Shown here piece after piece: positions 1,088-62,725 of a stretch of 64,000 nucleotides of DNA (its first letter is position 1; every line of letters starts with the position of its first letter). The stretch lies in the sequence record ON528734; one strand, given 5' to 3'. The notes under the pieces are model-generated. The model had not been told where the DNA came from, did no database searches, and saw only the letters and a program-made list of their open reading frames with translations. This stretch comes from Shigella phage ESh24. The position numbers were made by a program, and so were the translations under genes.

Positions 1088-1108
1088 GGGACCTCCGGGT
1101 CCCTTTTT
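1088..1108 (+). terminator. Rho-independent terminator after gene 43
   Basis: GGGACCTCCGGGTCCC hairpin followed by a T-run. Confidence 0.7.
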
Positions 1109-1190
1109 CATACAAGTAATATAAATCTATACTTAGGAAAAATAGATGATTCTGGACCCTTTGGATTCATTAAAAATTTTTCACAAAACT

Positions 1191-1221
1191 GTTTACATCC
1201 CTGTTCTTCCATGGTACTATA
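1191..1221 (+). promoter_or_regulatory. T4-type early promoter
   Basis: GTTTAC at 1191-1196, TACTAT at 1215-1220, about 18 bp apart, A/T-rich upstream. Confidence 0.6.
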
Positions 1222-1245
1222 CAACTATCAACTACTGATACAGAT

Positions 1246-1638
1246 TTGGAGAATGAAATGAAAATCACTATTTTGGTTATTGCATTAGGTCTTACTGGTT
1301 GTGTAGCTCAAGGACCGGTAGTAAATCAGTCTGATGTAGGAAAAATTGTAAATTGTTCAAGTAAATTTTATAATCCTAATGTCAAGTGTTATAAAGAAGC
1401 TCCAAAGCAAACAGTAGAACAAATGCAGGCGAATTTTGACGAAGCTATTCGTCCAGATGAATCTGCTCAAGCATATCGTAATTCGGATGTAATTACACGC
1501 GAAGAAAAAATTGAAAACTACTGCGCCGAGCTTTGGGCTAATTGGGCTAATAATTACCAATGGCGTACTGGTAAAAATGCTCCGATGGAGTATGTAGTGA
1601 ATTCTTATAATTCATGTGTAAAAAATTTGACTAAGTGA
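1246..1638 (+). CDS. Putative lipoprotein (imm.1-like position); start may be ATG 1258
   Basis: N-terminus MKITILVIALGLTGC resembles a signal peptide with lipobox; sits directly upstream of imm. Confidence 0.6.
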   Translation: MENEMKITILVIALGLTGCVAQGPVVNQSDVGKIVNCSSKFYNPNVKCYKEAPKQTVEQMQANFDEAIRPDESAQAYRNSDVITREEKIENYCAELWANWANNYQWRTGKNAPMEYVVNSYNSCVKNLTK

Positions 1639-5235: not shown

Positions 5236-6663
5236 GTGGTAGAAATTATTCTTTCTCATCTTATATTTGATCAAGCTTATTTTTCAAAAGTTTGGCCATA
5301 TATGGATTCAGAATATTTTGAAAGTGGTCCAGCTAAAAATACATTCAAATTAATTAAATCTCATGTTAATGAGTATCATAGCGTTCCATCTATCAATGCG
5401 TTAAATGTTGCATTAGAAAATAGTTCATTTACTGAAACAGAATATTCTGGTGTAAAAACACTTATTTCAAAACTGGCTGATTCTCCAGAAGACCACAGTT
5501 GGTTAGTAAAAGAAACAGAAAAATATGTTCAGCAAAGGGCGATGTTTAATGCTACGTCTAAAATAATCGAAATTCAAACTAATGCTGAGCTTCCTCCGGA
5601 AAAACGAAATAAGAAAATGCCGGATGTTGGTGCTATTCCTGACATCATGCGGCAAGCATTATCTATTTCATTTGATAGTTACGTTGGTCATGATTGGATG
5701 GATGACTATGAAGCACGTTGGCTATCTTATATGAATAAAGCTCGTAAAGTTCCATTTAAACTCAGAATTCTAAACAAAATTACTAAAGGCGGAGCTGAAA
5801 CAGGAACACTGAACGTTTTAATGGCTGGCGTTAACGTTGGTAAATCATTAGGACTTTGTTCATTAGCAGCAGATTATTTGCAGCTTGGTCATAACGTTCT
5901 TTATATCTCCATGGAAATGGCAGAAGAAGTCTGCGCTAAACGTATTGATGCTAATATGCTCGATGTTTCTCTTGACGATATTGATGATGGACATATTTCT
6001 TACGCTGAGTATAAAGGAAAAATGGAAAAATGGCGTGAGAAATCTACTCTCGGTCGTTTAATCGTTAAACAGTATCCTACTGGTGGAGCAGACGCTAATA
6101 CATTCAGGTCTCTCTTGAACGAATTGAAGCTCAAAAAGAATTTTGTTCCAACAATCATTATTGTCGACTATCTAGGTATTTGTAAATCTTGCCGCATTAG
6201 AGTTTATTCAGAAAATAGTTACACAACTGTTAAAGCTATTGCAGAGGAATTGCGTGCTCTGGCTGTTGAAACCGAAACTGTTCTTTGGACTGCAGCACAG
6301 GTCGGTAAACAAGCTTGGGACTCTTCTGATGTTAACATGAGCGATATTGCAGAATCTGCCGGTCTTCCAGCAACGGCTGATTTTATGCTTGCGGTCATTG
6401 AAACCGAGGAGCTAGCAGCTGCTGAACAACAACTCATTAAGCAAATCAAATCACGATATGGTGATAAGAATAAGTGGAATAAGTTTTTGATGGGTGTTCA
6501 AAAAGGAAATCAAAAATGGGTAGAAATTGAACAAGATTCTACTCCAAGTGAAGTGAGTGAGGTAGCAGGTTCACAACAGATTCAGGCTGAACAGAATCGC
6601 TATCAAAGAAACGAATCGACTCGAGCTCAGTTAGATGCTTTGGCAAATGAATTAAAATTTTAA
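5236..6663 (+). CDS. 41: Replicative DNA helicase gp41 (DnaB-like)
   Basis: 475 aa, GTG start after AAGGAG; Walker A GVNVGKS; matches T4 gp41 length. Confidence 0.95.
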   Translation: MVEIILSHLIFDQAYFSKVWPYMDSEYFESGPAKNTFKLIKSHVNEYHSVPSINALNVALENSSFTETEYSGVKTLISKLADSPEDHSWLVKETEKYVQQRAMFNATSKIIEIQTNAELPPEKRNKKMPDVGAIPDIMRQALSISFDSYVGHDWMDDYEARWLSYMNKARKVPFKLRILNKITKGGAETGTLNVLMAGVNVGKSLGLCSLAADYLQLGHNVLYISMEMAEEVCAKRIDANMLDVSLDDIDDGHISYAEYKGKMEKWREKSTLGRLIVKQYPTGGADANTFRSLLNELKLKKNFVPTIIIVDYLGICKSCRIRVYSENSYTTVKAIAEELRALAVETETVLWTAAQVGKQAWDSSDVNMSDIAESAGLPATADFMLAVIETEELAAAEQQLIKQIKSRYGDKNKWNKFLMGVQKGNQKWVEIEQDSTPSEVSEVAGSQQIQAEQNRYQRNESTRAQLDALANELKF

Positions 6664-6664
6664 T

Positions 6665-6700
6665 TTACAAGCTGACAAGACTATGGTATAGTAGTCTTGT
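6665..6700 (+). promoter_or_regulatory. Early promoter with 8-bp inverted repeat around the -10 element
   Basis: ATTTACA -35; CAAGACTA / TAGTCTTG arms flank TATGGTATAG. Confidence 0.5.
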
Positions 6701-6721
6701 TGGTTAAATGAGGAGATTGTT

Positions 6722-6904
6722 ATGGAATTGGTAAAGGTAGTTTTTATGGGGTGGTTTAAGAATGAAAGCATGTTTACTAAAGAAATCACAATGATGAAAG
6801 ATGACGTTCAATGGGCTACTACTCAATATGCTGAAGTTAATAAAGCATTAGTTAAAGCTTTCATTGATGACAAGAAAGTATGTGAAGTAGATTGCCGAGG
6901 ATAA
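6722..6904 (+). CDS. dmd: Dmd-like protein (discriminator of mRNA degradation, antitoxin against RnlA/LsoA)
   Basis: 60 aa, directly downstream of gene 41 as T4 gene 61.5 (dmd). Confidence 0.65.
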   Translation: MELVKVVFMGWFKNESMFTKEITMMKDDVQWATTQYAEVNKALVKAFIDDKKVCEVDCRG

Positions 6905-7165: not shown

Positions 7166-7198
7166 ATTTACTTTTGTTGGAAATTGAGATACTATATA
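7166..7198 (+). promoter_or_regulatory. Early promoter upstream of sp
   Basis: ATTTAC -35-like and TACTATAT -10-like elements. Confidence 0.45.
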
Positions 7199-9316: not shown

Positions 9317-9348
9317 GTTTACTTTCTCAGCTTGTTATGGTATTATAA
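9317..9348 (+). promoter_or_regulatory. Early promoter upstream of the 186-aa ORF and dam
   Basis: GTTTAC 9317-9322, TATTATAA 9341-9348. Confidence 0.55.
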
Positions 9349-9371
9349 AATAAATTGCTGAGGATGATATA

Positions 9372-10711
<1,340 letters not shown>

Positions 10712-11612: not shown

Positions 11613-11635
11613 GGACTCCTTCGGGAGTCCTTTTT
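11613..11635 (+). terminator. Rho-independent terminator after soc
   Basis: GGACTCC-TTCG-GGAGTCC hairpin plus T-run. Confidence 0.75.
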
Positions 11636-11701
11636 CATTTAAACGGTTTACTTTCCAAAATGAGTATGGTATAATAAAATTATCTTATAGAGGAGAGCAC
11701 T

Positions 11702-11914
11702 ATGTTAAATCGTTGGATTAAACCAAATGAAGACCTCCAGAAGGTTCTTGATAAAGCTATCTCTGATAAATGGGGTATGAAAAGCTGGGATTGCGATGTC
11801 GTTACGCATTCATTCATGATGCATGCAGATGGTTCAGTCGAGTTCAATGCTGAAATGCGATACACTGACTGGGGTGGATTTCAAAGAGTCGAATTTCAAA
11901 GAGGCTTTTTGTAA
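11702..11914 (+). CDS. Hypothetical protein (70 aa)
   Basis: ORF with GAGGAG RBS. Confidence 0.55.
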   Translation: MLNRWIKPNEDLQKVLDKAISDKWGMKSWDCDVVTHSFMMHADGSVEFNAEMRYTDWGGFQRVEFQRGFL

Positions 11915-18476: not shown

Positions 18477-18508
18477 GTTTACTTCCTCGGTTAGTTGTGG
18501 TATTATAA
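18477..18508 (+). promoter_or_regulatory. Early promoter
   Basis: GTTTAC 18477-18482, TATTAT 18501-18506. Confidence 0.55.
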
Positions 18509-18533
18509 CACCATAGCTACTGAGGATAATAAA

Positions 18534-19031
18534 ATGAAAATTTATCGTGTTGAATCATCGTTTAGTATTCTTGATTATGAAGATGCTATAACAATACGTC
18601 GAAATCTTTGTGTTCAAATAACGCCGTACAGGAGTATAATAGATTCATGGAGCGAAGAGTGGCTATTACACGTAGGTTATGACAGACCTAATTTTATGCA
18701 TCATAGCGATAATAAAAGAATTCCTTTACCACACGAAGATAAACTATTAGTTAAAAACGCTAATATAGTAATTAATACTAAGTTCAAGAAAGATTATGTT
18801 GGAGTAGAATATCATATTCCAGGATGGTTTATAGCTCTTTATCATTTTGCTTTCGCTAGTGAATATGATATGATGAGATGGTTCACACGAGAAGAGAGGG
18901 AAGAATTATCTTCTAAAGGATTTTATCTTGCTGTATACGAAGTTCCTGAAGATGAAGTTATCATTGGTGGGCACCAAGTAATGTTCCGCAAATCGCATGC
19001 TGAACTTGTAGATTTTATTGAAATGAGATAA
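18534..19031 (+). CDS. Hypothetical protein (motB-region; 165 aa from ATG 18534)
   Basis: ORF with GAGGA RBS after the early promoter. Confidence 0.55.
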   Translation: MKIYRVESSFSILDYEDAITIRRNLCVQITPYRSIIDSWSEEWLLHVGYDRPNFMHHSDNKRIPLPHEDKLLVKNANIVINTKFKKDYVGVEYHIPGWFIALYHFAFASEYDMMRWFTREEREELSSKGFYLAVYEVPEDEVIIGGHQVMFRKSHAELVDFIEMR

Positions 19032-19581: not shown

Positions 19582-19611
19582 GTTTACAAACTCTTGGGAC
19601 CAGAGTATAAT
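19582..19611 (+). promoter_or_regulatory. Early promoter
   Basis: GTTTAC 19582-19587, TATAAT 19606-19611. Confidence 0.6.
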
Positions 19612-19656
19612 GGTCCTGTGGAGTATAAAAATCTTTTTAACAAGTGAGAGATAACT

Positions 19657-20145
19657 ATGATTATTAATATTGGTGAAATTGCTCGTGTATCTGATAAATC
19701 CCGTTCTAAAGCAGCAGGAAAATTGGTCGAAATTGTAAGCATTCAGCTTAAACACGGCGTTAAAGATGAAGATTCTGAAGTAAAAGTGCGTATCATTCCT
19801 AAAGATGGAAAGTCTAAACCTCAGTTTGGTTATGTTCGTGCGAAATTTCTTGAATCTGCGTTTTTGAAAGCTGTTCCCGCTAAAGGAATTGAAACGATTG
19901 ATACTTCGCATGTAGGTGTAGACTTTAAGTGGAAACTCGGTCAAGCTATTAAGTTCATTGCTCCTTGTGAATTTAAATTTATCAAAGATGATGGAAAGGC
20001 TGCTTATACTCGCGCTATGTGTGGATACATTACCGATCAATGGGTAGAAGATGGCGTTAAGTTGTACAACGTGGTATTTTTAGGAACATACAAAGTCATT
20101 CCTGAAAGTTGGATTAAACACTATAGCAATGCTCTCTATGCATAA
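19657..20145 (+). CDS. Hypothetical protein (162 aa; possibly MotB by size), paralog of 19034..19579
   Basis: C-terminal CGYITDQWVEDGVKLYNVV; 162 aa equals T4 MotB length but identity is unverified. Confidence 0.6.
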   Translation: MIINIGEIARVSDKSRSKAAGKLVEIVSIQLKHGVKDEDSEVKVRIIPKDGKSKPQFGYVRAKFLESAFLKAVPAKGIETIDTSHVGVDFKWKLGQAIKFIAPCEFKFIKDDGKAAYTRAMCGYITDQWVEDGVKLYNVVFLGTYKVIPESWIKHYSNALYA

Positions 20146-20181
20146 AGTTTAAAATTTTTTCATAAAACTATATACATCAGT

Positions 20182-20224
20182 AGTTGATTATGGTACTATA
20201 TCAATATCAACTACTGATATAGAA
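20182..20224 (+). promoter_or_regulatory. Early promoter embedded in a 13-bp perfect inverted repeat
   Basis: ATCAGTAGTTGAT-tatggtactatatcaat-ATCAACTACTGAT. Confidence 0.5.
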
Positions 20225-20317
20225 AACAACTTGGAGAATAAAATGGATAATTCGTTAAAGGTGCTGATACTCTTCTGAAACGCATCGCTCCAATGTTCAA
20301 TTAATGAGGAAATTGTA

Positions 20318-23657: not shown

Positions 23658-23686
23658 TTTACTTTACCACAAGGATGTGGTATAAT
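23657..23686 (+). promoter_or_regulatory. Early promoter
   Basis: GTTTAC 23657-23662, TATAAT 23681-23686. Confidence 0.55.
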
Positions 23687-26115: not shown

Positions 26116-27054
26116 ATGTACAATATTAAATGCCTGACCAAAAACGAACAAGCTGAAATTGTTAAATTGTATTCAAGCGGTAATTACACCCAACAGGAAT
26201 TGGCTGATTGGCAAGGTGTATCGGTTGATACAATCCGTCGTGTTTTGAAAAATGCTGAAGAAGTTAAACGCTCTAAAGTTACTATTAGCGGTGATATTAC
26301 AGTTAAAGTTAATAGTGATGTAGTTATTGCTCCAGTTGCTAAATCTGACATTATTTGGAATGCATCTAAAAAATTCATTTCGATTACTGTTGACGGTGTA
26401 ACTTATAACGCAACTCCTAATACTCATTCAAACTTCCAGGAAATTCTCAATCTGCTTGTAGCGGATAAGCTGGAAGAAGCGGCACAAAAAATTAATGTTC
26501 GTCGCGCTGTTGAAAAATATATTTCCGGCGATGTTCGAATTGAAGGTGGAAGCTTGTTCTATCAAAATATTGAATTGCGGTCTGGTTTGGTTGATCGTAT
26601 TCTTGACTCGATGGAAAAAGGCGAAAACTTTGAATTTTATTTTCCGTTCTTGGAAAATCTGCTGGAAAACCCAAGCCAAAAAGCGGTATCTCGACTCTTT
26701 GATTTCTTGGTAGCAAACGATATTGAAATTACAGAAGATGGTTACTTCTATGCTTGGAAAGTAGTTCGCAGCAATTACTTTGACTGTCACTCAAATACCT
26801 TTGATAACAGTCCGGGTAAAGTAGTTAAAATGCCGCGTACTCGCGTGAATGACGATGATACACAAACTTGTTCTCGTGGTCTGCATGTGTGTTCTAAATC
26901 TTATATTCGTCACTTCGGTGGTTCAACCAGCCGAGTTGTAAAAGTTAAAGTTCATCCTCGCGATGTAGTATCAATTCCGATTGATTACAACGATGCTAAA
27001 ATGCGTACCTGCCAATACGAAGTAGTTGAAGACGTTACTGAACAATTTAAATAA
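26116..27054 (+). CDS. rIIB: rIIB protein
   Basis: 312 aa, immediately downstream of rIIA. Confidence 0.93.
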   Translation: MYNIKCLTKNEQAEIVKLYSSGNYTQQELADWQGVSVDTIRRVLKNAEEVKRSKVTISGDITVKVNSDVVIAPVAKSDIIWNASKKFISITVDGVTYNATPNTHSNFQEILNLLVADKLEEAAQKINVRRAVEKYISGDVRIEGGSLFYQNIELRSGLVDRILDSMEKGENFEFYFPFLENLLENPSQKAVSRLFDFLVANDIEITEDGYFYAWKVVRSNYFDCHSNTFDNSPGKVVKMPRTRVNDDDTQTCSRGLHVCSKSYIRHFGGSTSRVVKVKVHPRDVVSIPIDYNDAKMRTCQYEVVEDVTEQFK

Positions 27055-27277: not shown

Positions 27278-27282
27278 AATAA

Positions 27283-27304
27283 GGGGCTTCGGCCCTTTTG
27301 TTTT
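27283..27304 (+). terminator. Rho-independent terminator
   Basis: GGGGCTTCGGCCC hairpin plus T-run. Confidence 0.7.
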
Positions 27305-27341: not shown

Positions 27342-27899
27342 ATGCAGAAAACAAATCCGGGTTTGCAGAGACTATTTCAGATTCCGACATTTACCCTATC
27401 GAACAGTGACTTGACTAGTGAAATGAAGGTCAAAATTGCTGATACAGCAAGATACTCTTTAAAACAAAATCCAAATCAGGATAAGGCAGAAGTTATCGAA
27501 AGATGCCGTATCGCTGTGTACGCAGAGTTTTTTGTGGCAGATTGGCTAAGCGGATATGTCAATAAAGGCCAAGAAGATGTCGATGATCCGTACACATATG
27601 CATGGGATGTTTTAGCACATCCAAAATACTGTGGGCTCCGTGTAGAAGTTAAGACACATCAAACTGACTCGCGTTGGATTTCGGTAACAACGGGATGCAG
27701 CGGAGAGTATCCATATGGTTCTGGAATAAATCTAGGGCCCATTCTAAATCATCAAGTCGCTGACTGTATAATTATATTCAACACTAAAGAAATTCATCCA
27801 GGTGTCATCCAGTACACTCCGAAGTTCATCGGTGATAGAGAAGACCTTCGTAAGGTTGTAAGAAAAAGCAACTACAACGGATGGTATCTTTCCATTTAA
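27342..27899 (+). CDS. denB: Endonuclease IV (DenB)
   Basis: 185 aa (T4 EndoIV length) downstream of rIIB. Confidence 0.8.
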   Translation: MQKTNPGLQRLFQIPTFTLSNSDLTSEMKVKIADTARYSLKQNPNQDKAEVIERCRIAVYAEFFVADWLSGYVNKGQEDVDDPYTYAWDVLAHPKYCGLRVEVKTHQTDSRWISVTTGCSGEYPYGSGINLGPILNHQVADCIIIFNTKEIHPGVIQYTPKFIGDREDLRKVVRKSNYNGWYLSI

Positions 27900-27915
27900 A
27901 AAATTTCACAAAACG

Positions 27916-27947
27916 GTTTACATACCACAAGGACCGTGGTACTATAC
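27916..27947 (+). promoter_or_regulatory. Early promoter (repeat module copy)
   Basis: GTTTAC 27916-27921, TACTATAC 27940-27947. Confidence 0.55.
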
Positions 27948-27973
27948 AATTATCAACTACGGAGGAGCGGAAA

Positions 27974-28320: not shown

Positions 28321-28415
28321 AAATTATGAATTCTGTACTTATTGCTTGCGCGTGGTGGGTTGCACAGGTTTCAGCGGTAGTAGTTGGTATTCACATTTAT
28401 TACGAATATTTTTAA
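28317..28415 (+). CDS. Tiny hydrophobic protein (32 aa)
   Basis: ATGA overlap; one predicted transmembrane helix. Confidence 0.3.
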   Translation: MKIMNSVLIACAWWVAQVSAVVVGIHIYYEYF

Positions 28416-28420
28416 AAAGC

Positions 28421-28455
28421 TGTTTACAAGACTGTTCTTCCGTGGTACTATTACC
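28421..28455 (+). promoter_or_regulatory. Early promoter (repeat module copy)
   Basis: GTTTACA then GTACTATT. Confidence 0.5.
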
Positions 28456-28479
28456 CTATCAACTACGGAGGAACAGAAA

Positions 28480-31510: not shown

Positions 31511-31515
31511 TTTTA

Positions 31516-31548
31516 GGGAGAGCCTCGGCTCTCCCTTTTTTATTTTAA
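31516..31548 (+). terminator. Rho-independent terminator
   Basis: GGGAGAGCCTCGGCTCTCCC plus T-run. Confidence 0.75.
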
Positions 31549-31566
31549 AATTTTTTTCACAAAACG

Positions 31567-31600
31567 GTTTACAACCAAAGCATACTGTGGTACTATACAA
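31567..31600 (+). promoter_or_regulatory. Early promoter for motA (repeat module copy)
   Basis: GTTTACA then GTACTATAC. Confidence 0.55.
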
Positions 31601-31637
31601 CTATCAACTACTGATACAGAATTACGGAGATTAGAAA

Positions 31638-33652: not shown

Positions 33653-33932
33653 ATGATTATTGATTCTCAATCTGTGGTTCAATATACAATCAAAATTGAT
33701 ATTCTAGAAAAGCTATATAAGTTTTCTACCAAATTTATACCATTCAATTGTTAATGAATTAGTTGAAGAATTACATCTTGAGAATAACGATTTCTTGATT
33801 GGAACTTATAAAGACCTCTCAAAAGCAGGATATTTTTACGTAATTCCAGCTCCAGGAAAAAGTATTGATGATATATTAAAAACTATAATGATTTACGTCC
33901 ATGATTACGAAATTGAAGATTATTTCGAATGA
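33653..33932 (+). pseudogene. Apparent frameshifted ORF (33 aa + 59 aa in +1 frame), possibly disrupted arn-like gene
   Basis: ATG with AGGGGAAGG RBS opens a 33-aa frame ending at 33754; the +1 frame continues open to 33932 with no start codon of its own; combined about 92 aa. Confidence 0.3.
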
Positions 33933-40996: not shown

Positions 40997-43900
40997 TTAT
41001 TCAACCCATTCAAATTTAACAGTTTTATTCACTGGGTCAGGAATAATGCGAACATTACCAATTCGTAAGAAATCACGAATAGTAAGATTCCCCATTGTAG
41101 CATTATCAGATGGTAAAGCACCGATATCAGACGGTTGAGGAGGGTTACCTCCATCAAATACCTGAACAAAACTTGACCAAGAATTTTTGGTTTTCTGCCA
41201 TGTGCGGGTCCAACGAGTGGTACGCGCTTCTGGAGTTGTTGGATAAGTAATCCAATCTTGATAAAGCGAATCAAGTGTGTTACCAAACTGAGTCAGTGTA
41301 CCAGGAGATTTAACTTCTTCGCCACGTTCTAAATATGGAAGACCAGTCACTTCATTAGTTTTTTCAACCATTTTAAAATAACCTGGGAACTGGTTATAAG
41401 TAGCTGAATCGTTAATATCAATTGACCAGAATCCTACAGTATCAGATGTTGGCGCACGTGTATATAAGTCAGATGTTTTAGTACCTTGAGAACGAATTCT
41501 CGAGTTAACAGTTAAACCACCAGAATTTATAGTAGCACCTTTGGCGATGATTAAGCTTTCACCAATCGTTACTTGACCAGATGCATTATTAATAGCTAAT
41601 GGGCGTAATCCATTGAATCCACCAGTCTGATCACCCGATGCAGTAAGCATAAAATTCGTTACTGATCCATCATTGCGAACAATGAAACCATAATTTCCGT
41701 TAATAGCACGGAAAGCATTTGCGCTTCGAGAAATAATTTCACCAGTTGCAGTGACTGAATTACCAAATGTTGCTACGCCATTTGCATTCAATGTTCCTGA
41801 AGCATTAACATTTATCGGTGTTACTGTACCGTTGATATTAAATGTTATATTTCCAGCTTTATTGCGCTGAGAATAAAAATGACTAGATGTTTCATCACTA
41901 ACTTCAAATACGGTAGAACGTGTTGTATCTAATTCCCCACTAAATTGATTTCCCCACACTCTAACAGTCATCGTTTGGGCTGGGTTTGTTCCAGTTTGAG
42001 GTCCTTTCTCAAAAATCAATCGAGTTGCTGTTCCAGTATTAGAAATCGTTAGTACACTATTTGCTGTAACTGAACCACCAAACGTAGCAGTACTAGATGA
42101 TACAAGAGGGGCACTCAGATTCGTTTGTTGGGTTAAGGTTAGTGAACCATTAACCGTCTGCGCAATGTCCCTACGAATGAACTGAGATGAATCTAGACCA
42201 TCCAATAAATTACTATCAGCAGCTTTTGCTTTTAACGGTAAATAATTTGCTAATACACGGTTTAATTCGTATGGTGATACTGCATAGCTATTTTTCTCAT
42301 ACAGTTCTAAATCTTGGGTAGAACCGACTGTATCATTACCGACAAATGTAATTGAACCAGATGAAGTTTTAACAAAGCCTCTTACTGTAGTAGTAGCTGC
42401 CCAGGTAGGTTCACTCTGTACAATCCATTTTAAATTTTTTGGAGATACAGCAGTATTTGCTGACGTTCCAGTCACAGTTTCAGACTGAGTTGCAACTTTA
42501 ATAACACCTTCTTGTGCTTCAGTAGATTTAGTACCTAAAAGCTTTTTAGGAGTTATTAAAACATTATCTAATTTTCCAGCAGCAGCTTCAACTTGTGTAG
42601 CCACACGAAGTGTACCACGTTGTGTCTCATTTGCTTCAAGAATATTAAGGGTATAATGGTCCCAGAGAGTTCCTGATTCAACTAATCCAGATAGAGCAAC
42701 AACAGAAGTACGATCAGTACTATTAAATCTAGTTTTAATTTTTAATGGTGTAGAGATACGAGTATCGTCGACGCCTGCGTCGAATTCAACTTGTGTAGCA
42801 ATTTCAGCTATACCACTTAAACTTTCAGTTGCTCTACGGTCATTTAAAGTTTTAGGAGTGACTGCACGAGTATAATCAGTTCCTGTATTAACTTCAGATT
42901 GTGTAGCAATTTCAATTAATCCAATTCTTCCATCAGTTGATGTCTTTTTGTGTAACGTTTCTGGCGTTACAACAGCATTTGCCCATCCTTCTTGACTCTG
43001 TCCAGCAATTACTTCACTTTCAACTGCTAAAATTACTGCACCTTGTTGCGTTGGAGTAGCTTTATATTGATCTAAAGCTTTAGGTGAAACAACTAAATTA
43101 TTAGTGTTTTTATTATAAACGTTTGTACCATTTAATTCACGGCTAGAAGCTGGAGTAGCACCTGCAGTAGATACAAAAGTTACAATACCAGATAATGATT
43201 CAGAACCTTGACGAGCTTGAAGCTTTTTAGGAGTAATGATGGTTGTATCATCTGTTCCTGCGTTTGTTTCTTGCTGCGTAGCAATTTCAGCAACACCTCT
43301 GCGAGTTTCTGTAGCAGTTCTTTCATTCAGCTTTTTAGGAGTGATGATAATATCATCAGCAAAAGAGAATGTAGTATCCTGGTTAACTTGAGCAGTAGTT
43401 GCTATTCTTGCGATACCTCTGCGAGTTTCAGTAGCAGTACGATTAGCTAACGTTTCTGGAGTAATTGCTAATTCTTTTTGTGGAGAATTTTCTAAATCGA
43501 CATTAGCTTGAGCTTGTGTAGCTAAAGCAATTACGCCTAATCTTGCTCTAGTAGAATCATTTAAAGAGTCTACTCTTTCTACAGTTGGAACGTTTTGCTG
43601 TACAACCCAGTATTTTCCATCAGAATCTTCAATATATGCAAGCTCTAAAACTGGAACATAATTAGTTTCACCGTTAAAAACTAATTCTTGAACTGTAACC
43701 CACTCAGCTCCAGGCGGATATTCTGAGCGTTTTGGGAATTGCAGCAATTGAACTGAGGAAGCAATTTTATCTTCACCAGCAGCTTTGATTTTAACTGTTT
43801 GTCCTTTTCTCATGTAATTCATGGAAATTTTAACAGTATCACCAACAGAAATATCAGTCGGAAGCTGAAGCTCAATTGTTTGAGTTGCTCCGTTATTCGC

Positions 43901-48162: not shown

Positions 48163-48188
48163 GGGGACCCTAGAGGTCCCCTTTTTAT
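48163..48188 (+). terminator. Rho-independent terminator after gene 32
   Basis: GGGGACC-CTAGA-GGTCCCC plus T-run. Confidence 0.75.
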
Positions 48189-48211
48189 TTCAAAAATTTT
48201 TTCACAAAACG

Positions 48212-48245
48212 GTTTACATCCTTGTCCTTCCATGGTACTATACAA
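48212..48245 (+). promoter_or_regulatory. Early promoter (repeat module copy)
   Basis: GTTTACA then GTACTATAC. Confidence 0.55.
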
Positions 48246-48284
48246 CTATCGGCAATACTGCTGATGATTAAAGAGGAAAATAAT

Positions 48285-48559: not shown

Positions 48560-48925
48560 ATGTATATCGGTAAAAAGTATGAACTTGTTCCAAGACTTAT
48601 TGATACATTTATTAATTATCGCCCACGTTCTAATTCAGCAATAGTTAAAATTATTCAAGAAAATGGCGGATGGTTTGAAGTTAAAGAAGCTTTCTTTGTT
48701 GATGGATTTAGAGTAATAAAACACATTGAATGCGCAAATGGAAAGCATTTTTACTTTAACGTTTGTGAAGACGAATTTCATTGTTTTCGTGAGTATAAAG
48801 AACTGACTTCTGAAGAAGATGAAGTCAAAGACAAGGTTTCTGGCGTAACAAAAATTCACTGCATTGTAGACGAAAACAATGTAGATGAAATCATTGAACT
48901 TTTGCGAAAAACTTTCAAAAAGTAG
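48560..48925 (+). CDS. Hypothetical protein (121 aa)
   Basis: GAGGAAAA RBS. Confidence 0.55.
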   Translation: MYIGKKYELVPRLIDTFINYRPRSNSAIVKIIQENGGWFEVKEAFFVDGFRVIKHIECANGKHFYFNVCEDEFHCFREYKELTSEEDEVKDKVSGVTKIHCIVDENNVDEIIELLRKTFKK

Positions 48926-48958
48926 TTTACAACAGGGTAGTAGTGTGATACTATTACC
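48925..48958 (+). promoter_or_regulatory. Early promoter with imperfect inverted repeat
   Basis: GTTTACA; AGGGTAGTAGT / ACTATTACCCT arms around the -10 element. Confidence 0.5.
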
Positions 48959-48979
48959 CTATCAACTAAGGAGAATAAA

Positions 48980-50473: not shown

Positions 50474-51022
50474 ATGAAACAATACCAAGATTTAATTAAA
50501 GACATTTTTGAAAATGGCTATGAAACCGATGACCGAACAGGCACAGGAACAATTGCTTTGTTTGGTACTAAATTACGCTGGGATTTAACTAAAGGTTTTC
50601 CTGCAGTAACAACTAAGAAGCTCGCTTGGAACGCATGTATTGCTGAGCTTCTATGGTTTATTTCCGGTTCTACCAATGTTAATGATTTACGTCTTCGTAC
50701 TCATGGTAGTCTTATTCAAGGTAAAACTATCTGGGATGACAATTATGAAAACCAAGCTAAAGACCTAGGATATCATAGTGGTGAACTTGGTCCAATTTAT
50801 GGAAAACAGTGGCGTGATTTCGGTGGTGTGGATCAATTAGTTGAAACTATTGATCGTATTAAAAAATTACCAACTGATCGACGTCAAATCGTTTCAGCAT
50901 GGAATCCAGCTGAAATCAATCAAATGGCATTACCGCCCTGTCATATGTTCTATCAGTTTAATGTGCGTAATGGCTATTTAGATTTGCAGTGGTATCAACG
51001 ATCAGTAGATGTTTTCTTGGGT
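50474..51022 (+). CDS. td: Thymidylate synthase, exon 1
   Basis: 183 codons ending ...VDVFLG immediately before the intron. Confidence 0.9.
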
Positions 51023-52038
51023 TAATTGAGGCCTGAGTATAAGGTGACTTATACTTGTAATCTATCTAAACGGGGAACCTCTCTAGTAGACAATCCCGTG
51101 CTAAATTGTAGGACTGCCCTTTAATAAATACTTCTATATTTAAAGAGGTATTTATGAAAAGCGGAATTTATCAGATTAAAAATACTTTAAACAATAAAGT
51201 ATATGTAGGAAGTGCTAAAGATTTTAAAAAGAGATGGAAGAGGCATTTTAAAGATTTAGAAAAAGGATGCCATTCTTCTATAAAACTTCAGAGGTCTTTT
51301 AACAAACACGGTAATGTGTTTGAATGTTCTATTTTGGAAGAAATTCCATATGAGAAAGATTTGATTATTGAACGAGAAAATTTTTGGATTAAAGAGCTTA
51401 ATTCTAAAATTAATGGATACAATATTGCTGATGCAACGTTTGGTGATACATGTTCTACACATCCATTAAAAGAAGAAATTATTAAGAAACGTTCTGAAAC
51501 TGTTAAAGCTAAGATGCTTAAACTTGGACCTGATGGTCGGAAAGCTCTTTACAGTAAACCCGGAAGTAAAAACGGGCGTTGGAATCCAGAAACCCATAAG
51601 TTTTGTAAGTGCGGTGTTCGCATACAAACTTCTGCTTATACTTGTAGTAAATGCAGAAATCGTTCAGGTGAAAATAATTCATTCTTTAATCATAAGCATT
51701 CAGACATAACTAAATCTAAAATATCAGAAAAGATGAAAGGTAAAAAGCCTAGTAATATTAAAAAGATTTCATGTGATGGGGTTATTTTTGATTGTGCAGC
51801 AGATGCAGCTAGACATTTTAAAATTTCGTCTGGATTAGTTACTTATCGTGTAAAATCTGATAAATGGAATTGGTTCTACATAAATGCCTAACGACTATCC
51901 CTTTGGGGAGTAGGGTCAAGTGACTCGAAACGATAGACAACTTGCTTTAACAAGTTGGAGATATAGTCTGATCTGCATGGTGACATGTAGCTGGATATAA
52001 TTCCGGGGTAAGATTAACGACCTTATCTGAACATAATG
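51023..52038 (+). mobile_element. td group I intron (1016 nt) carrying the I-TevI gene
   Basis: 5' end TAATTGAGGCCTGAGTATAAGGTGAC... and 3' end ...CTGAACATAATG match the recalled T4 td intron; exon frames join across it. Confidence 0.85.
51154..51891 (+). CDS. I-TevI: Homing endonuclease I-TevI (GIY-YIG)
   Basis: 245 aa; GIYQIKNTLNNKVYVGSAKDFKKRWKRH GIY-YIG motif. Confidence 0.9.
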   Translation: MKSGIYQIKNTLNNKVYVGSAKDFKKRWKRHFKDLEKGCHSSIKLQRSFNKHGNVFECSILEEIPYEKDLIIERENFWIKELNSKINGYNIADATFGDTCSTHPLKEEIIKKRSETVKAKMLKLGPDGRKALYSKPGSKNGRWNPETHKFCKCGVRIQTSAYTCSKCRNRSGENNSFFNHKHSDITKSKISEKMKGKKPSNIKKISCDGVIFDCAADAARHFKISSGLVTYRVKSDKWNWFYINA

Positions 52039-52350
52039 CTACCATTTAATATTGCATCATATGCTGCGTTAGTTCATATTGTAGCTAAGATGTGTAATCT
52101 TATTCCTGGAGATTTGATATTTTCTGGCGGTAATACTCATATCTATATGAATCATGTGGAACAATGTAAAGAAATTTTACGTCGTGAACCTATGGATTTA
52201 TGCGAATTGCAATTAAAATTTCCAGATGAATTTGATGAATGGGACACAGAATCGCAGGTATTTTGGTTGAGTCAATTCGCAAAGCCGCATAATTTTGTTC
52301 TTAACAACTATGAATCACACCCTTCTATTAAAGGAAAGATGGCGGTGTAA
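52039..52350 (+). CDS. td: Thymidylate synthase, exon 2
   Basis: Begins LPFNIASYA... in frame with exon 1; combined 286 aa. Confidence 0.88.
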
Positions 52351-55220: not shown

Positions 55221-55896
55221 ATGAGCACAGTTTTTAATACAAATCCAGTTGATGTTTTAAAAGAACCTATGTTTTTTGGTTCAGGTCTTGGTATTGCGCG
55301 TTATGATATTCAGCGGCATCGAGTATTTGAAGAACTTACTGAGAAGTCTTTATCATTTTTCTGGCGTCCTGAAGAAGTAAACTTAATGATGGATGCTGCG
55401 CAATTTAATAAGCTTCCTCAGTATCAGCAAAATATTTTTACTAATAACCTGAAGTATCAATCACTTTTGGATAGCATTCAGGGTCGTGCGCCATCTGCTG
55501 TACTTATGTCATTAATTTCAGACCCGAGTCTTGATACATGGGTTGCTACATGGACTTTTAGTGAAACTATTCACAGTCGTTCATATACACATATCATGCG
55601 AAATCTTTATACTGATCCATCGAAGGTATTTGATGAGATTGTATTAGATGAAGCTATTATGAAACGCGCTGAATCCATTGGACGTTATTATGATGATGTT
55701 CTGATTAAAACCCGTGAATGGGAAAATGCTAAAGAATTTGTAGAACTAGCTAAAGAATCTCCTGATGCCGACTTTCGTTTAAACAGGGCTATTAAACAAG
55801 AAGCCGAAGCTAAACGCGCTTTAATGAAATCTCTTTACCTCTGTTTACACGTTATTAATGCCTTAGAAGCTATTCGTTTTTATGTATCTTTTGCGT
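55221..55896 (+). CDS. nrdB: Ribonucleotide reductase small subunit NrdB, exon 1
   Basis: 225 codons ending ...FYVSFA followed by the intron; boundary placed by analogy, accurate to a few nt. Confidence 0.8.
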
Positions 55897-56981
55897 AAAA
55901 TGCGCCTTTAAACGGTAACGTTTATCGAAAACTCCTTTAATTGCTGGAAAGTCCTTTATAGGAAAACTAGCAGCCAAGGTTTTGCTTGCACCTTTAATTA
56001 GTATAATATGATTATACTTTTAAGAGGATGCACAATTGAACTATAGAAAAATTTGGATAGATGCTAACGGACCTATACCTAAAGATTCTGATGGAAGAAC
56101 ATACGAAATCCATCATAAAGACGGTAACCGTGAAAATAATGATTTAGATAATTTGATGTGCCTTTCTATACAGGAACATTATGATATACATTTAGCTCAA
56201 AAAGATTACCAGGCTTGTCATGCTATAAAGCTTAGAATGAAATATTCTCCTGAAGAAATTTCTGAATTAGCTTCTAAAGCCGCAAAATCTAGAGAAATCC
56301 AGATTTTTAATATCCCTGAAGTACGAGCTAAAAATATTGCCTCTATTAAATCTAAGATAGAAAATGGTACATTTCATCTTTTAGACGGTGAAATACAGCG
56401 TAAATCTAATTTAAATAGAGTTGCATTAGGTATACATAATTTTCAACAAGCTGAGCATATTGCAAAAGTTAAAGAACGCAATATTGCAGCTATAAAAGAA
56501 GGTACTCATGTATTTTGCGGTGGTAAAATGCAGTCAGAAACTCAATCAAAACGGGTAAATGACGGTTCACATCATTTCTTGTCAGAAGACCATAAGAAAA
56601 GAACATCAGCAAAAACATTAGAAATGGTTAAGAACGGGACCCATCCTGCACAAAAAGAAATCACATGTGATTTCTGCGGTCACATTGGTAAAGGTCCTGG
56701 ATTTTATCTAAAACATAATGACAGATGTAAATTAAATCCAAATAGAATTCAATTGAATTGTCCATATTGTGATAAGAAAGATTTATCACCATCAACATAT
56801 AAACGATGGCACGGCGACAATTGCAAAGCAAGGTTCAACGACTAGTCTTCGGACGTAGGGTCAAGCGACTCGAAATGGGGAGAATCCCTCTGGGATTGTG
56901 ATATAGTCTGGTCTGCATAGTAATATGTAGCAGTTCATAAGAGAACGGGTTGAGAATTAGCGAGCTCAATCGAACATAACG
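55897..56981 (+). mobile_element. nrdB group I intron (about 1085 nt) carrying a full-length I-TevIII gene
   Basis: 3' end ...TCGAACATAACG parallels the td intron 3' end; exon 2 frame resumes immediately after. Confidence 0.75.
56036..56845 (+). CDS. I-TevIII: Homing endonuclease I-TevIII (HNH), full length
   Basis: 269 aa; HNH motif EIHHKDGNRENNDLDNL; C-terminal Cys-rich zinc finger. Confidence 0.8.
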   Translation: MNYRKIWIDANGPIPKDSDGRTYEIHHKDGNRENNDLDNLMCLSIQEHYDIHLAQKDYQACHAIKLRMKYSPEEISELASKAAKSREIQIFNIPEVRAKNIASIKSKIENGTFHLLDGEIQRKSNLNRVALGIHNFQQAEHIAKVKERNIAAIKEGTHVFCGGKMQSETQSKRVNDGSHHFLSEDHKKRTSAKTLEMVKNGTHPAQKEITCDFCGHIGKGPGFYLKHNDRCKLNPNRIQLNCPYCDKKDLSPSTYKRWHGDNCKARFND

Positions 56982-57484
56982 GTACCTTTAACTTCCATAA
57001 GAACATGGAAATCATGGAAGGTAATGCCAAGATTATGAAGTTCATTGCACGCGATGAACAGCTTCACCTTAAAGGCACCCAATATATTATTCGTCAGCTT
57101 CAATCCGGTACTGATGGTGATGAATGGGTTAAAATTGCCAAAGAGTGTGAACAAGAAGCAGTTGATATTTTCATGGAAGTTAACCGCCAAGAAAAAGATT
57201 GGGCAGTTCATTTATTTAAAGATGGCGATGTTCCTGGATTAAATACAAATAGCATGTGGAGCTTTATTGATTACTTAACTGTATCTCGTATGAAACAGTG
57301 TGGTCTTCCATGCCCGATTACCGATGCTCCGGTTAAACATCCATATCCTTGGATTCGTGAATACCTTAATTCTGATAATGTTCAATCCGCGCCGCAAGAA
57401 GTAGAACTGTCATCTTATCTTGTTGCACAGATTGATAATGATGTTGATGATAAAGTTATGATGAGTTTTAAAAAATACTTTTAA
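56982..57484 (+). CDS. nrdB: Ribonucleotide reductase small subunit NrdB, exon 2
   Basis: In-frame continuation ...NMEIMEGNAKIMKFIARDEQLHL...; C-terminus matches recalled T4 NrdB. Confidence 0.8.
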
Positions 57485-59099: not shown

Positions 59100-59103
59100 G
59101 TTG

Positions 59104-59158
59104 TTTACAAGTCCCTCATGCTGTGTTATAGTAGTCTTACTGACATAACATGAGGACT
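59104..59158 (+). promoter_or_regulatory. Early promoter with inverted repeat
   Basis: GTTTACA; AGTCCCTCATG ... CATGAGGACT arms; TATAGT -10. Confidence 0.5.
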
Positions 59159-59160
59159 TT

Positions 59161-59667
59161 ATGATGGATTTGCAGCTTATTACTACTGAAATGGTCGTTG
59201 AAGCATACGGTGATACTACAGATGGGATTTCTGTATTTAAAGGAAATCGTCGAGTTGGATATATCACCGATCTTAAGAAAGATTTAGCTAAGCAAGTCAA
59301 GCGGAAAACGACCATTAAAGAATATCGAAATCGTCGTCTTGAGCAAGCCCGTGATATGCTTCCTGATGCGGTTGAGGAGATGAAAGTCTTTTTAGAAAAT
59401 CAACTCGCTAAGTATGAGTGCGAAGTATTCATTAATCAGACTCAACCTAATGTTCATATCAATAGCTGCAAATGCTATATCATCGTTAATCCTTTGACGG
59501 GAAAACATCGTCTTGGAATTAGTAATCCAAATCGTAGCGCATCGGATATGGCAGAAGATGTTGAGGCATGCTTTAAAATTTCTAAATCTCCGGCTGAACA
59601 CCATATTTTAATTAACGGTCTTTCTCAAGACGATATTGTAGAGGTTATTAAAACTTTATGCAATTAA
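59161..59667 (+). CDS. alc: Alc (blocks host transcription elongation on cytosine DNA)
   Basis: 168-aa ORF at the T4 alc position between rnlA and pseT. Confidence 0.7.
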   Translation: MMDLQLITTEMVVEAYGDTTDGISVFKGNRRVGYITDLKKDLAKQVKRKTTIKEYRNRRLEQARDMLPDAVEEMKVFLENQLAKYECEVFINQTQPNVHINSCKCYIIVNPLTGKHRLGISNPNRSASDMAEDVEACFKISKSPAEHHILINGLSQDDIVEVIKTLCN

Positions 59668-62426: not shown

Positions 62427-62456
62427 GTTTACTTTACGGTAGAGTTGTGATATTAT
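62427..62456 (+). promoter_or_regulatory. Early promoter
   Basis: GTTTAC 62427-62432, TATTAT 62451-62456. Confidence 0.55.
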
Positions 62457-62485
62457 AGCTCTACCAAACAAATGAGGAAAACAAA

Positions 62486-62725
62486 ATGCTGCTAAGTGAA
62501 AAACCGATTACTGTTAAAGAATTCCAAGAAAAAGTTAAGTTATTTGCACAGGAATTGGTAAATAAGGTTTCTGAACGATTTCCTGAAACATCGGTTCGTG
62601 TTATTACCGAAACTCCTCGTTCAGTATTAGTAATTGTGAATCCAGGTGATGGCGATCAAATATCGCATCTTAAACTGGATTTTGATGGATTAGTTGAAGC
62701 ACAAAGGGTGTATGGCGTACTATGA
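62486..62725 (+). CDS. Hypothetical protein (79 aa)
   Basis: GAGGAAAA RBS. Confidence 0.55.
   Translation: MLLSEKPITVKEFQEKVKLFAQELVNKVSERFPETSVRVITETPRSVLVIVNPGDGDQISHLKLDFDGLVEAQRVYGVL

Follow-up and report, generated by a model that had tools for sequence, protein, structure and literature searches.

The window, a 64,000-nucleotide stretch of the genome of Shigella phage ESh24 (record ON528734), comes from a T4-like phage of the genus Tequatrovirus and is about 98% identical to phage wV7. Over its first 6 kb, it aligns with hundreds of Tequatrovirus genomes at 95 to 98% identity, with wV7 and vB_Eco_T-01 the closest. Early transcription runs along the plus strand of the window, which corresponds to the T4 minus strand. 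Gene order is T4-like: the end of gene 43 is followed by imm.1, imm, 42, the beta-glucosyl-HMC-alpha-glucosyltransferase gene, uvsX, 40, and 41, and further along come 39, rIIA, rIIB, denB, the ndd cluster, 52, and motA. Genes t, 38, 37, 36, 35, and 34 lie after motA on the opposite strand, and the last part of the window includes rnh and, beyond it, 32, frd.3, frd.2, frd.1, frd, td, nrdA, and nrdB, and finally cd.

An unbiased direct-repeat search of the window recovered a single family of seven members, here called modules, all on the plus strand (Table 1). A sequence-only reading of this DNA had listed six copies, all of which are present on the plus strand where it placed them and fall into the one family when the window is compared with itself in this way; it had overlooked the seventh, between motB and cef. 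The repeat is far beyond chance. With up to 3 mismatches allowed, the upstream block TTTTCACAAAACKGTTTACA matched at six places against 0.07 expected from dinucleotide-preserving shuffles, and the downstream block GGTACTATACAACTATCAACTAC matched at four against 0.00 expected. Copy-to-copy identity over 66 nt ranges from 0.56 to 0.83, the longest exact runs in common are 7 to 33 nt, and a 15-nt spacer is mostly dissimilar between copies. The term "near-identical," used in the sequence-only reading, is therefore too strong, because whole-module identity is just 56 to 83%.

Table 1. Promoter modules, upstream terminators, and embedded hairpins in the window (window coordinates; +1 positions are predicted)
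Feature	Extent	Strand	Repeat unit	-35	-10	+1	ATG	Remarks
Module 1, imm.1 early promoter	1166..1257	+	1174-1239	GTTTAC 1191-1196	TGG + TACTAT 1212-1220	A at 1227	1258	UP ~1172-1190; leader with GGAG; assigned by consensus and T4 orthology
Module 2, between motB and cef	20145..20242	+	20153-20218	ATATAC 20170-20175	20194-20199	~20206	20243	Found by repeat search; ATG opens an 11-codon remnant ORF, followed by cef (ATG 20318)
Module 3, just past denB stop	27891..27973	+	27899-27964	27916-27921	27940-27945	~27952	27974	Leader CAACTACGGAGGAGCGG; ATG opens an 87-aa ORF268-like gene; 506 bp from module 4
Module 4, ndd.4-like ORF promoter	28397..28479	+	28405-28470	28422-28427	28446-28451	~28458	28480	
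Module 5, motA early promoter	31542..31637	+	31550-31615	31567-31572	31591-31596	~31603	31638	SD contains GGAG
Module 6, frd.3 promoter	48187..48284	+	48195-48260	48212-48217	48236-48241	~48248	48285	
Module 7, frd.1 promoter	48900..48979	+	48908-48973	48925-48930	48949-48954	~48961	48980	Overlaps frd.2 stop codon
Gene 43 terminator	1088..1108	+						GGGACC-UCCG-GGUCCC + T-run; ~70 nt upstream of module 1
Intrinsic terminator after motA.1	31515..31542	+						Stem GGGAGAGC/GCUCUCCC, loop CUCG, T-run; z -4.7; directly 5' of module 5
Gene 32 terminator	48163..48186	+						GGGGACC-CUAGA-GGUCCCC + T-run; directly 5' of module 6
Module 2 hairpin	20176..20218	+						Spacer ATCAGTAGTTGAT pairs with leader ATCAACTACTGAT, -10 at apex; MFE -20.2 kcal/mol
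Module 4 hairpin	28432..28476	+						Spacer CTGTTCTTCCGTGGT pairs with leader ACTACGGAGGAACAG, including SD; MFE -22.7 kcal/mol
Module 7 hairpin	48934..48960	+						AGGGUAGUAGUG / UACUAUUACCCU, -10 in 3' arm; MFE -15.2 kcal/mol, z -3.65

We identify the seven copies as predicted sigma-70 early promoters of a T4-like phage that belong to one sequence subclass, with activity assigned from orthology and consensus. Every copy has a 17-bp spacing between -35 and -10 (counted from TTTACW), the -10 hexamer TACTAT preceded by TGG or TGA, and a AAAATTTTTTCACAAAAC-like sequence upstream; GTTTAC is present in six of the seven, the copy at 20170 being the exception. The subclass consensus reads AAAATTTTTTCACAAAAC-G-GTTTACA-(spacer)-TGG-TACTAT-ACAACTATCAACTAC. 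It comprises a near-consensus UP element (TTTTCACAAAAC / AAAATTTTTTCACAAAAC), the -35 GTTTACA, the variable 15-nt spacer, the extended -10 TGG-TACTAT, and a conserved start region, ACAACT-ATCAACTAC, in which discriminator and start can be written as ACAACT-A(+1)TCAACTAC. The AAAATTTTTTCACAAAAC-like region presumably fits the UP consensus of Estrem, in a register good to within ~1 nt. The leaders (5' UTRs) are 19 to 37 nt long and end in a GGAG-type ribosome site followed by the ATG of a small early gene. GGAG, the motif that the T4 RegB nuclease cleaves in early mRNAs, lies inside the ribosome site in six of the seven copies.

All seven modules occupy orthologous positions in T4, T2, PST, and wV7, and their T4 counterparts are the early promoters of imm.1, the motB-cef gap, the denB-ndd gap, ndd.4, motA, frd.3, and frd.1. 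With +1 predicted as the seventh nucleotide after the -10, the starts of the imm.1 and rnh promoters fall, in the T4 orthologues, at map units 27,044 and 150,727, coinciding with published T4 coordinates at which early transcription regions begin (Patterson-West et al. 2018). Given this placement of +1, the conserved "leader" of the sequence-only reading is therefore the discriminator ACAACT plus positions +1 to +9 (AUCAACUAC); its combination of a T4 early promoter with a conserved start region agrees with both the anatomy and the T4 orthology. The UP element, the -35, the TGn with the -10, and the discriminator with +1 are all known contacts of Escherichia coli RNA polymerase, and the whole module fits inside the footprint of the sigma-70 polymerase, which extends from roughly -60 to +20.

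A list and consensus of T4 early promoters (Pe) were reportedly drawn up by Liebig and Rueger in 1989 and by Wilkens and Rueger. These promoters have been reviewed as UP/-35/TGn/-10 promoters with additional consensus regions (Hinton 2010, PMC2988021). The modules share with them the GTTTAC -35, the 17-bp spacing to TAYWAT, the TGn, the A/T-rich UP, the extra consensus, the place just upstream of early ORFs, the orthologous sites, and the +1 at 27,044. Set against the general T4 early consensus, the seven copies are the same in kind but make up a narrower subclass (GTTTACA, TACTAT, TTTCACAAAAC, CTATCAACTAC); no name for a TACTAT subclass was found in the T4 early-promoter literature consulted.

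Scanning the window for GTTTAC-N18-TAnnAT gave ~20 good matches, nearly all on the plus strand and just 5' of ORFs. Nineteen promoters were compared, and the dmd promoter at 6663 was added for the hairpin test described below (20 in total). Over the 25 nt that precede the -35, the spacer, and the 22 nt that follow the -10, identity within the family is 0.64, 0.42, and 0.63, respectively; the corresponding figures among the other 12 early promoters analyzed are 0.38, 0.34, and 0.32, and 0.27 is expected of random sequence. Because family identity outside the hexamers exceeds that of the other early promoters, the copies have extended flanking identity in common and not just the generic -35 and -10. 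The other early promoters of the window carry GTTTACTT and a -10 of TATAAT or TATTAT. The family boundary is not sharp: TACTAT also serves as the -10 of the promoter at 7166, and the leaders of those at 7166, 18477, and 34033 are related to family leaders.

Terminators lie upstream of only three of the seven modules (Table 1). A GC-rich hairpin with a T-run is found immediately upstream only of the copies at 31550 and 48195; apart from these two and the one at 1174, the copies overlap the ORF before them at its 3' end. The gene 43 terminator carries a terminator annotation in phage Lutter, and that of gene 32 does so in wV7. The copies had been described as often lying directly after a UUCG-loop terminator, which does not hold, since the three loops are UCCG, CUCG, and CUAGA. 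Hairpins that do have a UUCG loop lie elsewhere in the window, at 27281-27298 and 11616-11627, and adjoin no family copy.

The modules were split into UP, spacer, and leader and compared across five genomes, and in many cases paralogues were closer than orthologues. In T4, the start region and leader at the ndd.6 locus equal those of imm.1 at 44 of 45 positions, and in PST an identical 3-nt deletion is found in the ndd.6-locus and imm.1 leaders. In T2, the module at the imm.1 locus matches that phage's ndd.4 module in both spacer and leader, down to the T2-specific CCTCTG. Three spacer alleles occur at the frd.3 locus: one imm.1-like (the window), one unique (T4), and one motA-identical (RB14); the RB14 frd.3 promoter has a core of ~54 nt that equals the motA promoter, spacer included. 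The leader type of module 3 also varies, being L1 in T4, PST, and T2 and L2 in the window and wV7, and the window's module 3 consists of its own core and an ndd.4-type (L2) leader, a combination that appears compatible with a past element-to-element event. Relatives also show replacement of whole leader-plus-ORF units, with the junctions located in the -10/leader block. To account for these patterns, ectopic recombination or gene conversion is needed, and its crossovers must fall within the conserved -10/start block.

These features resemble the promoter early stem-loop (PeSL) cassettes described from phages RB49 and phi1, which combine an AT-rich region with an early promoter and a stem-loop, followed by an SD and ATG; the stem-loop, which includes G-T pairs, may precede the promoter, lie between its -35 and -10, or overlap the -10 (Arbiol et al. 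2010, PMC2839356). PeSLs have also been reported for the phage pairs PST/T4 and nt-1/KVP40, and the T4/PST example is the same denB-ndd locus that holds module 3 (Comeau et al. 2014, PMC4122927). The modules have the AT-rich region, the early promoter, and the SD/ATG; three of them have embedded hairpins at the position that Arbiol et al. call commonest, variable small ORFs adjoin four of the seven, and in the chimeric elements the crossovers fall in the interval from the -10 to the SD/ATG, to which minicircle crossovers were mapped in RB49 and phi1 (PMC2839356). The RB49 and phi1 elements differ in having TTGACA/TATAAT promoters and GGGG...CCCC stems, whereas the modules have GTTTACA/TACTAT and AT-rich embedded stems, so the two are not homologous; Arbiol et al. 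likewise regarded the T-even elements as analogues, not homologues, of RB49-type PeSLs (PMC2839356). By anatomy, the modules are putatively the T-even counterpart of PeSL cassettes. The PeSL resemblance proposed in the sequence-only reading is partly supported: promoter, leader, and exchange between copies are shown, as are stem-loops at six of the seven; module-to-module deletions were not seen in the genomes and records compared, and breakpoint enrichment was not significant with four comparison genomes, as described below.

We consider it probable that the modules are one early-promoter subclass whose blocks are kept by polymerase contact and by shared descent with ongoing exchange, and that they serve as a PeSL-like linker. 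The seven promoters would recruit the unmodified host RNA polymerase right after infection, and the UP element (AAAATTTTTTCACAAAAC) would contact its alpha C-terminal domains. Because every conserved block falls within the polymerase footprint, selection for maximal polymerase contact may hold the blocks alike. At the same time, the copies have a common descent and, as comparison with relatives shows, continue to trade sequence through ectopic homologous recombination or gene conversion; the -10/start block, being placed between the locus-specific core and the leader-plus-ORF unit, would act as the linker for replacement of that unit. If exchange of this kind is at work, breakpoints would concentrate in the TGGTACTATACAACTATC block.

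A more specific proposal, which we regard as evenly balanced, is that the modules undergo concerted evolution: promoter cores, or hairpin units made of spacer plus leader, would be copied by ectopic gene conversion between loci 0.5 to ~30 kb apart, and the -10/start block would be the docking site at which a leader plus ORF is replaced while expression is kept. The spacer alleles at one locus would then come from a shared pool, as at frd.3, and the two arms of a hairpin would be co-inherited, since read-through RNA must fold. The PeSL hypothesis would also become quantitatively testable in the >500 sequenced Tequatrovirus genomes. No new kind of element is proposed here, because the promoters are textbook T4 biology and shuffling cassettes were published in 2010 and 2014. 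The value of the modules is as a worked T-even example in which the UP and -35, often with the spacer, stay with the locus while leader and ORF travel, in which paralogous promoters appear to convert one another, and in which a stem-loop can be built from a spacer and its own leader. The concerted evolution of promoter cores, together with co-inherited spacer and leader hairpin arms, is to us the most useful residue of the analysis.

Structural breakpoints were taken from chained BLAST alignments of the window with the syntenic regions of T4, wV7, PST, and T2. Leaving out the tail-fibre block, 65 of 84 breakpoint ends fell at gene junctions. Across the four genomes, polymorphic junctions made up 4 of the 7 in the family, 3 of the 11 at other early promoters, and 26 of the 84 that have no promoter; enrichment at the modules over promoterless junctions had an odds ratio of 3.0 and was not significant (Fisher p=0.21). 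The copies at motA, frd.3, and ndd.4 are structurally invariant in T4, wV7, PST, and T2. At motA, the UP, spacer, and start region differ at 0 to 2 positions per segment among T4, T2, PST, and wV7, and the T2 -10 is TATTAT.

At the four variable modules, the changes take several forms. An extra 78-aa ORF in wV7 is joined to module 1 at ATGAAAAT, at the ATG edge, and T2 has a different extra ORF there with a different leader. Behind module 2, wV7 and T2 encode an intact 89-aa ORF; in the window, T4, and PST, a deletion within this ORF, at an AAAA microhomology, has reduced it to an out-of-frame remnant. Four ORF arrangements are found behind the one promoter core of module 3 at the denB-ndd locus: ORF269 and ORF268 in PST, ORF268 alone with the ndd.4-type leader in the window and wV7, ORF269 and an 8-codon remnant in T2, and the remnant alone in T4. 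Module 7 has indels at both edges: a 22-codon micro-ORF, absent from the window, separates leader and frd.1 in T4, PST, and HEMP5, and in wV7, Maryam, and ESh32 an extra 261-nt ORF is joined exactly at the -35. Several of these junctions are short microhomologies of 4 to 10 nt (ATGAAAAT, CTAA(T)GGAG, AAAA), not long conserved blocks. Simple module-to-module deletions were found in none of T4, T2, PST, and wV7, and a chimeric-junction query for a deletion between modules 6 and 7 (the copies at 48212 and 48925) was matched by none of 543 matching phage records.

The ORFs flanked by the copies had been proposed as the most likely to be recently exchanged, a proposal that, as stated, is not supported by the junction counts, the three invariant modules, the internal ORF deletion behind module 2, and the missing deletion between modules 6 and 7. 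The modules do lie next to variable ORFs, but this does not demonstrably set them apart, and ORFs in the 64-kb stretch turn over mostly at junctions without a promoter; the counts do not establish a privileged role for the modules in recent gene exchange. The same counts and the missing deletion fit an alternative hypothesis in which the modules are bystanders: ORFs would turn over by microhomology at any gene boundary, and small accessory genes would often bring their own promoter. T4 has been found experimentally to amplify and delete DNA via 6- to 10-bp microhomologies (Srikant et al. 2022), and recombination of this kind supports the exchange mechanism and also a rival that needs no long modules. 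Morons, in the summary of Hendrix et al. (2000) given by Arbiol et al., are likewise small accessory genes that bring a promoter of their own, in some cases together with a terminator; in that summary they are not thought to move via conserved flanking regulatory sequence, whereas here the regulatory sequence is the repeat itself. The bystander hypothesis leaves unexplained the chimeric modules with crossovers inside the conserved block, the promoter-core conversions, and the four arrangements behind one denB-ndd core, and PeSL crossovers have been demonstrated in RB49 and phi1 (PMC2839356). We give it an appreciable chance of being right, though a lesser one than its being wrong.

In addition to serving as a promoter, a module may act at the level of RNA. 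Folding predicts that in modules 2, 4, and 7 the spacer is complementary to sequence farther along the same module, which places the -10 close to the apex (Table 1). The module 2 hairpin has a z score of -4.6 when the whole sequence is shuffled and of -4.5 when only the spacer is, and that of module 4 has a z score of -6.0; in both, none of the 19 other spacers folds equally well. At module 4, the predicted probability that the SD is unpaired is 0.00 in read-through RNA versus 0.82 in the promoter's own transcript, and the T2 variant of this ndd.4 hairpin keeps its pairing via G.U. A second haplotype of module 7 (GGCTATGGTA.../...TACTATAGCC), found in RB14 and in IMG/VR contigs, retains the hairpin through compensatory changes. 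Module 3 forms stems of only 5 to 7 bp, which are not significant. Counting upstream terminators and embedded hairpins alike, a convincing stem-loop accompanies six of the seven copies, the one at module 1 being the more distant gene 43 terminator.

The tendency extends beyond the family. When the spacer alone was shuffled 300 times in each of the 20 early promoters of the window, z was below -2 in 10 of them, including three of the seven modules (combined p=4e-10); in seven of these 10, no other spacer of the 19 folded equally well, and in three, one did. The sense strand folds at -18.5 kcal/mol versus -13.1 kcal/mol for the reverse complement, with 17% G.U pairs, a comparison that is biased because the hairpins were picked on the sense strand. 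There was weak replication in RB69, a phage of a different genus (2 of 6 promoters, p=0.015). Material for covariation is thin, with five Frd.1 loci in IMG/VR and four close genomes that vary too little. In a naive comparison, the predicted accessibility of the ribosome site was 0.33 in read-through RNA and 0.59 in the promoter's own transcript (p=6e-5). The difference was gone with shuffled or foreign upstream sequence (0.33 versus 0.38, p=0.16), and we rejected general masking of ribosome sites by the promoter region on the basis of this control. Clear predicted masking is confined to ndd.4 (0.00), imm.1 (0.05), and two promoters outside the family.

An embedded hairpin would form only in RNA read through from upstream, where it probably attenuates or insulates upstream transcription; at ndd.4 and imm.1 it probably masks the ribosome site. 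The mechanism has an analogue in T4 late promoters that lie inside an inverted repeat and provide translational control of e, soc, 49, I-TevI, and other genes (Edgell et al. 2010, PMC2988022): read-through RNA hides the ribosome site, RNA from the internal promoter is without the 5' arm, and the geometry at ndd.4 (28432-28476) is alike. The promoters here are early, however, and predicted masking is clear at only two of the seven copies. A stronger version holds that leader and spacer exist mainly to form a read-through hairpin that terminates or attenuates transcription or hides the ribosome site. The spacer self-complementarity, the better folding of the sense strand, the compensatory changes at frd.1, the masking predicted to be full at ndd.4 and strong at imm.1, the RB69 replication, and the late-promoter analogy are all in keeping with it. 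Yet a significant hairpin is absent from four of the seven modules, the length control with other upstream sequence leaves no general masking, the strand comparison carries the selection bias noted above, and the conserved UP/-35 block is left unexplained; in addition, the embedded hairpins are not classical terminators, because they are without T-runs. As the main account of the family, we think this version unlikely. We had also considered the embedded hairpins as a novelty and rejected this, since Arbiol et al. (2010, PMC2839356) already describe stem-loops in these places, both in the -35 to -10 interval and across the -10. Being already part of the PeSL description, they therefore strengthen the PeSL reading and add no new kind of element.

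Could the likeness be functional convergence only, with copies that neither move nor recombine and that resemble one another just in their polymerase contact surfaces? The conserved blocks are the UP, -35, TGn/-10, discriminator, and +1, and the spacer, which is without base-specific contacts, varies; the orthologous positions in T4, T2, PST, and wV7 and the unchanged structure of the motA, frd.3, and ndd.4 copies fit this hypothesis as well. It does not predict derived states common to paralogues, such as the PST 3-nt deletion, the T2 CCTCTG, and the RB14 motA core with its unconstrained spacer, or leader types that change between loci among genomes, and we judge it improbable.

A 201-nt query around module 1 found 6 to 9 matching places per Tequatrovirus genome. 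An autonomous, self-inserting element of the MITE or transposon type, which dispersed direct repeats of like length and a nearly identical copy in phage phiE142 might bring to mind, is highly improbable, as terminal inverted repeats, target-site duplications, and a transposase were not seen at the copies, which are co-oriented with early transcription, lie exactly one leader length 5' of an ATG, and hold orthologous positions in every genome compared; the exact 24-mer queried in IMG/VR, moreover, occurs in only a few T4-like contigs. A known RNA family was rejected, since Rfam at gathering thresholds gave no match anywhere in the window. Presence outside the T4-like phages was considered on account of two odd-looking matches, a 47-kb record and phiE142, and rejected, as both belong to the Straboviridae. 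In phiE142, of the genus Carettavirus, the almost identical module, spacer too, stands before an unrelated ORF, and a partial Tequatrovirus record has another such module in front of a different ORF.

Some promoter spacers are shared between loci. The spacer 10-mer ACCACAAGGA, which belongs to a small hairpin, ACCAC(A)...(T)GTGGT, is common to the rIIA.1 promoter (23663-23682), which lies outside the family of seven early promoter copies (modules 1 to 7), and to module 3, the copy after denB (27922-27941). Despite this common 10-mer, the two promoters are unlike in both the -10 and the leader. At the frd.3 promoter of phage RB14 (comparison sequence L033, 1650-1700), we found the motA promoter core together with the 18-nt motA spacer (window 31550-31605); at this locus, the window and T4 have two other spacers, one each. 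The same extended BLAST alignment was obtained for G2133, EP01, N2, and others, RB14 being the one among them read at the sequence level.

In phiE142, which belongs to a different genus, Carettavirus, one module (L020, 1500-1590) shares about 91% identity with module 1 (the imm.1 promoter), spacer included. This module is the sole BLAST-detectable copy in that genome, and an unrelated 264-nt ORF lies downstream of it.

Embedded hairpins, in which a promoter spacer pairs with its own -10 or leader, also occur outside the family. In seven nonfamily early promoters of the window, the spacer is specifically complementary to its own -10/leader region (z scores of -2.1 to -6.3 versus spacer shuffles), with the -10 at or near the hairpin apex.

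Hairpins and insertions located in the window
Feature	Coordinates	Details
Nonfamily promoter with spacer-leader hairpin	6663-6722	
Nonfamily promoter with spacer-leader hairpin	9317-9372	3' arm includes Shine-Dalgarno sequence
Nonfamily promoter with spacer-leader hairpin	11646-11702	
Nonfamily promoter with spacer-leader hairpin	18477-18534	3' arm includes Shine-Dalgarno sequence
Nonfamily promoter with spacer-leader hairpin	19582-19657	
Nonfamily promoter with spacer-leader hairpin	59103-59161	3' arm includes Shine-Dalgarno sequence
Nonfamily promoter with spacer-leader hairpin	62427-62486	
True UUCG-loop hairpin	11616-11627	CUCC-UUCG-GGAG; ahead of promoter at 11646
True UUCG-loop hairpin	27281-27298	AAGGGGC-UUCG-GCCCUUU; 3' of denB.1
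td insertion	51022-52039	1016 nt versus wV7 and T2; holds 245-aa I-TevI-like ORF
nrdB insertion	55896-56982	1085 nt versus wV7, PST, and T2; holds 269-aa ORF

The sequence-only reading had often placed a UUCG-loop terminator directly before the family copies. This was not borne out: both true UUCG hairpins precede no family copy, although they may be the terminators that reading had in mind.

Small ORFs beside the modules vary between phages. In T4 (L005, 1699-1771), PST (L009), and HEMP5 (L006), the frd.1 promoter leader is separated from frd.1 by a 22-codon ORF that has a Shine-Dalgarno sequence of its own, MFAPYIMAAVMLVCLYLLIKAC. The ORF is absent from the window, Maryam, and ESh32, where the junction lies at CTAA(T)GGAG (48966-48975 in the window). 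This ORF is unannotated in the records compared. Near module 2, in the motB-cef gap, positions 20243-20278 hold an 11-codon out-of-frame remnant (MDNSLKVLILF) of an ORF that wV7 and T2 retain in full, at 89 aa; T4 and PST share the window's deletion.

The anti-restriction gene arn (33653-33932) has one extra T in a T-run at about 33722-33725 relative to wV7, T4, and PST. The gene is thereby broken into two ORFs, one of 33 codons and the next in a different frame. Either arn is a genuine pseudogene here, or the extra T is a sequencing error.

Despite the td and nrdB insertions, an Rfam search of the window at gathering thresholds reported no group I intron. The ORF within the nrdB insertion is longer than the defective I-TevIII of T4.

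Gene 34, encoding the proximal tail fiber on the minus strand, contains a 68-nt repeat in four copies and a 45-nt repeat in three (42489-43465). The copies are 65 to 73% identical and appear to be coding repeats internal to gp34.
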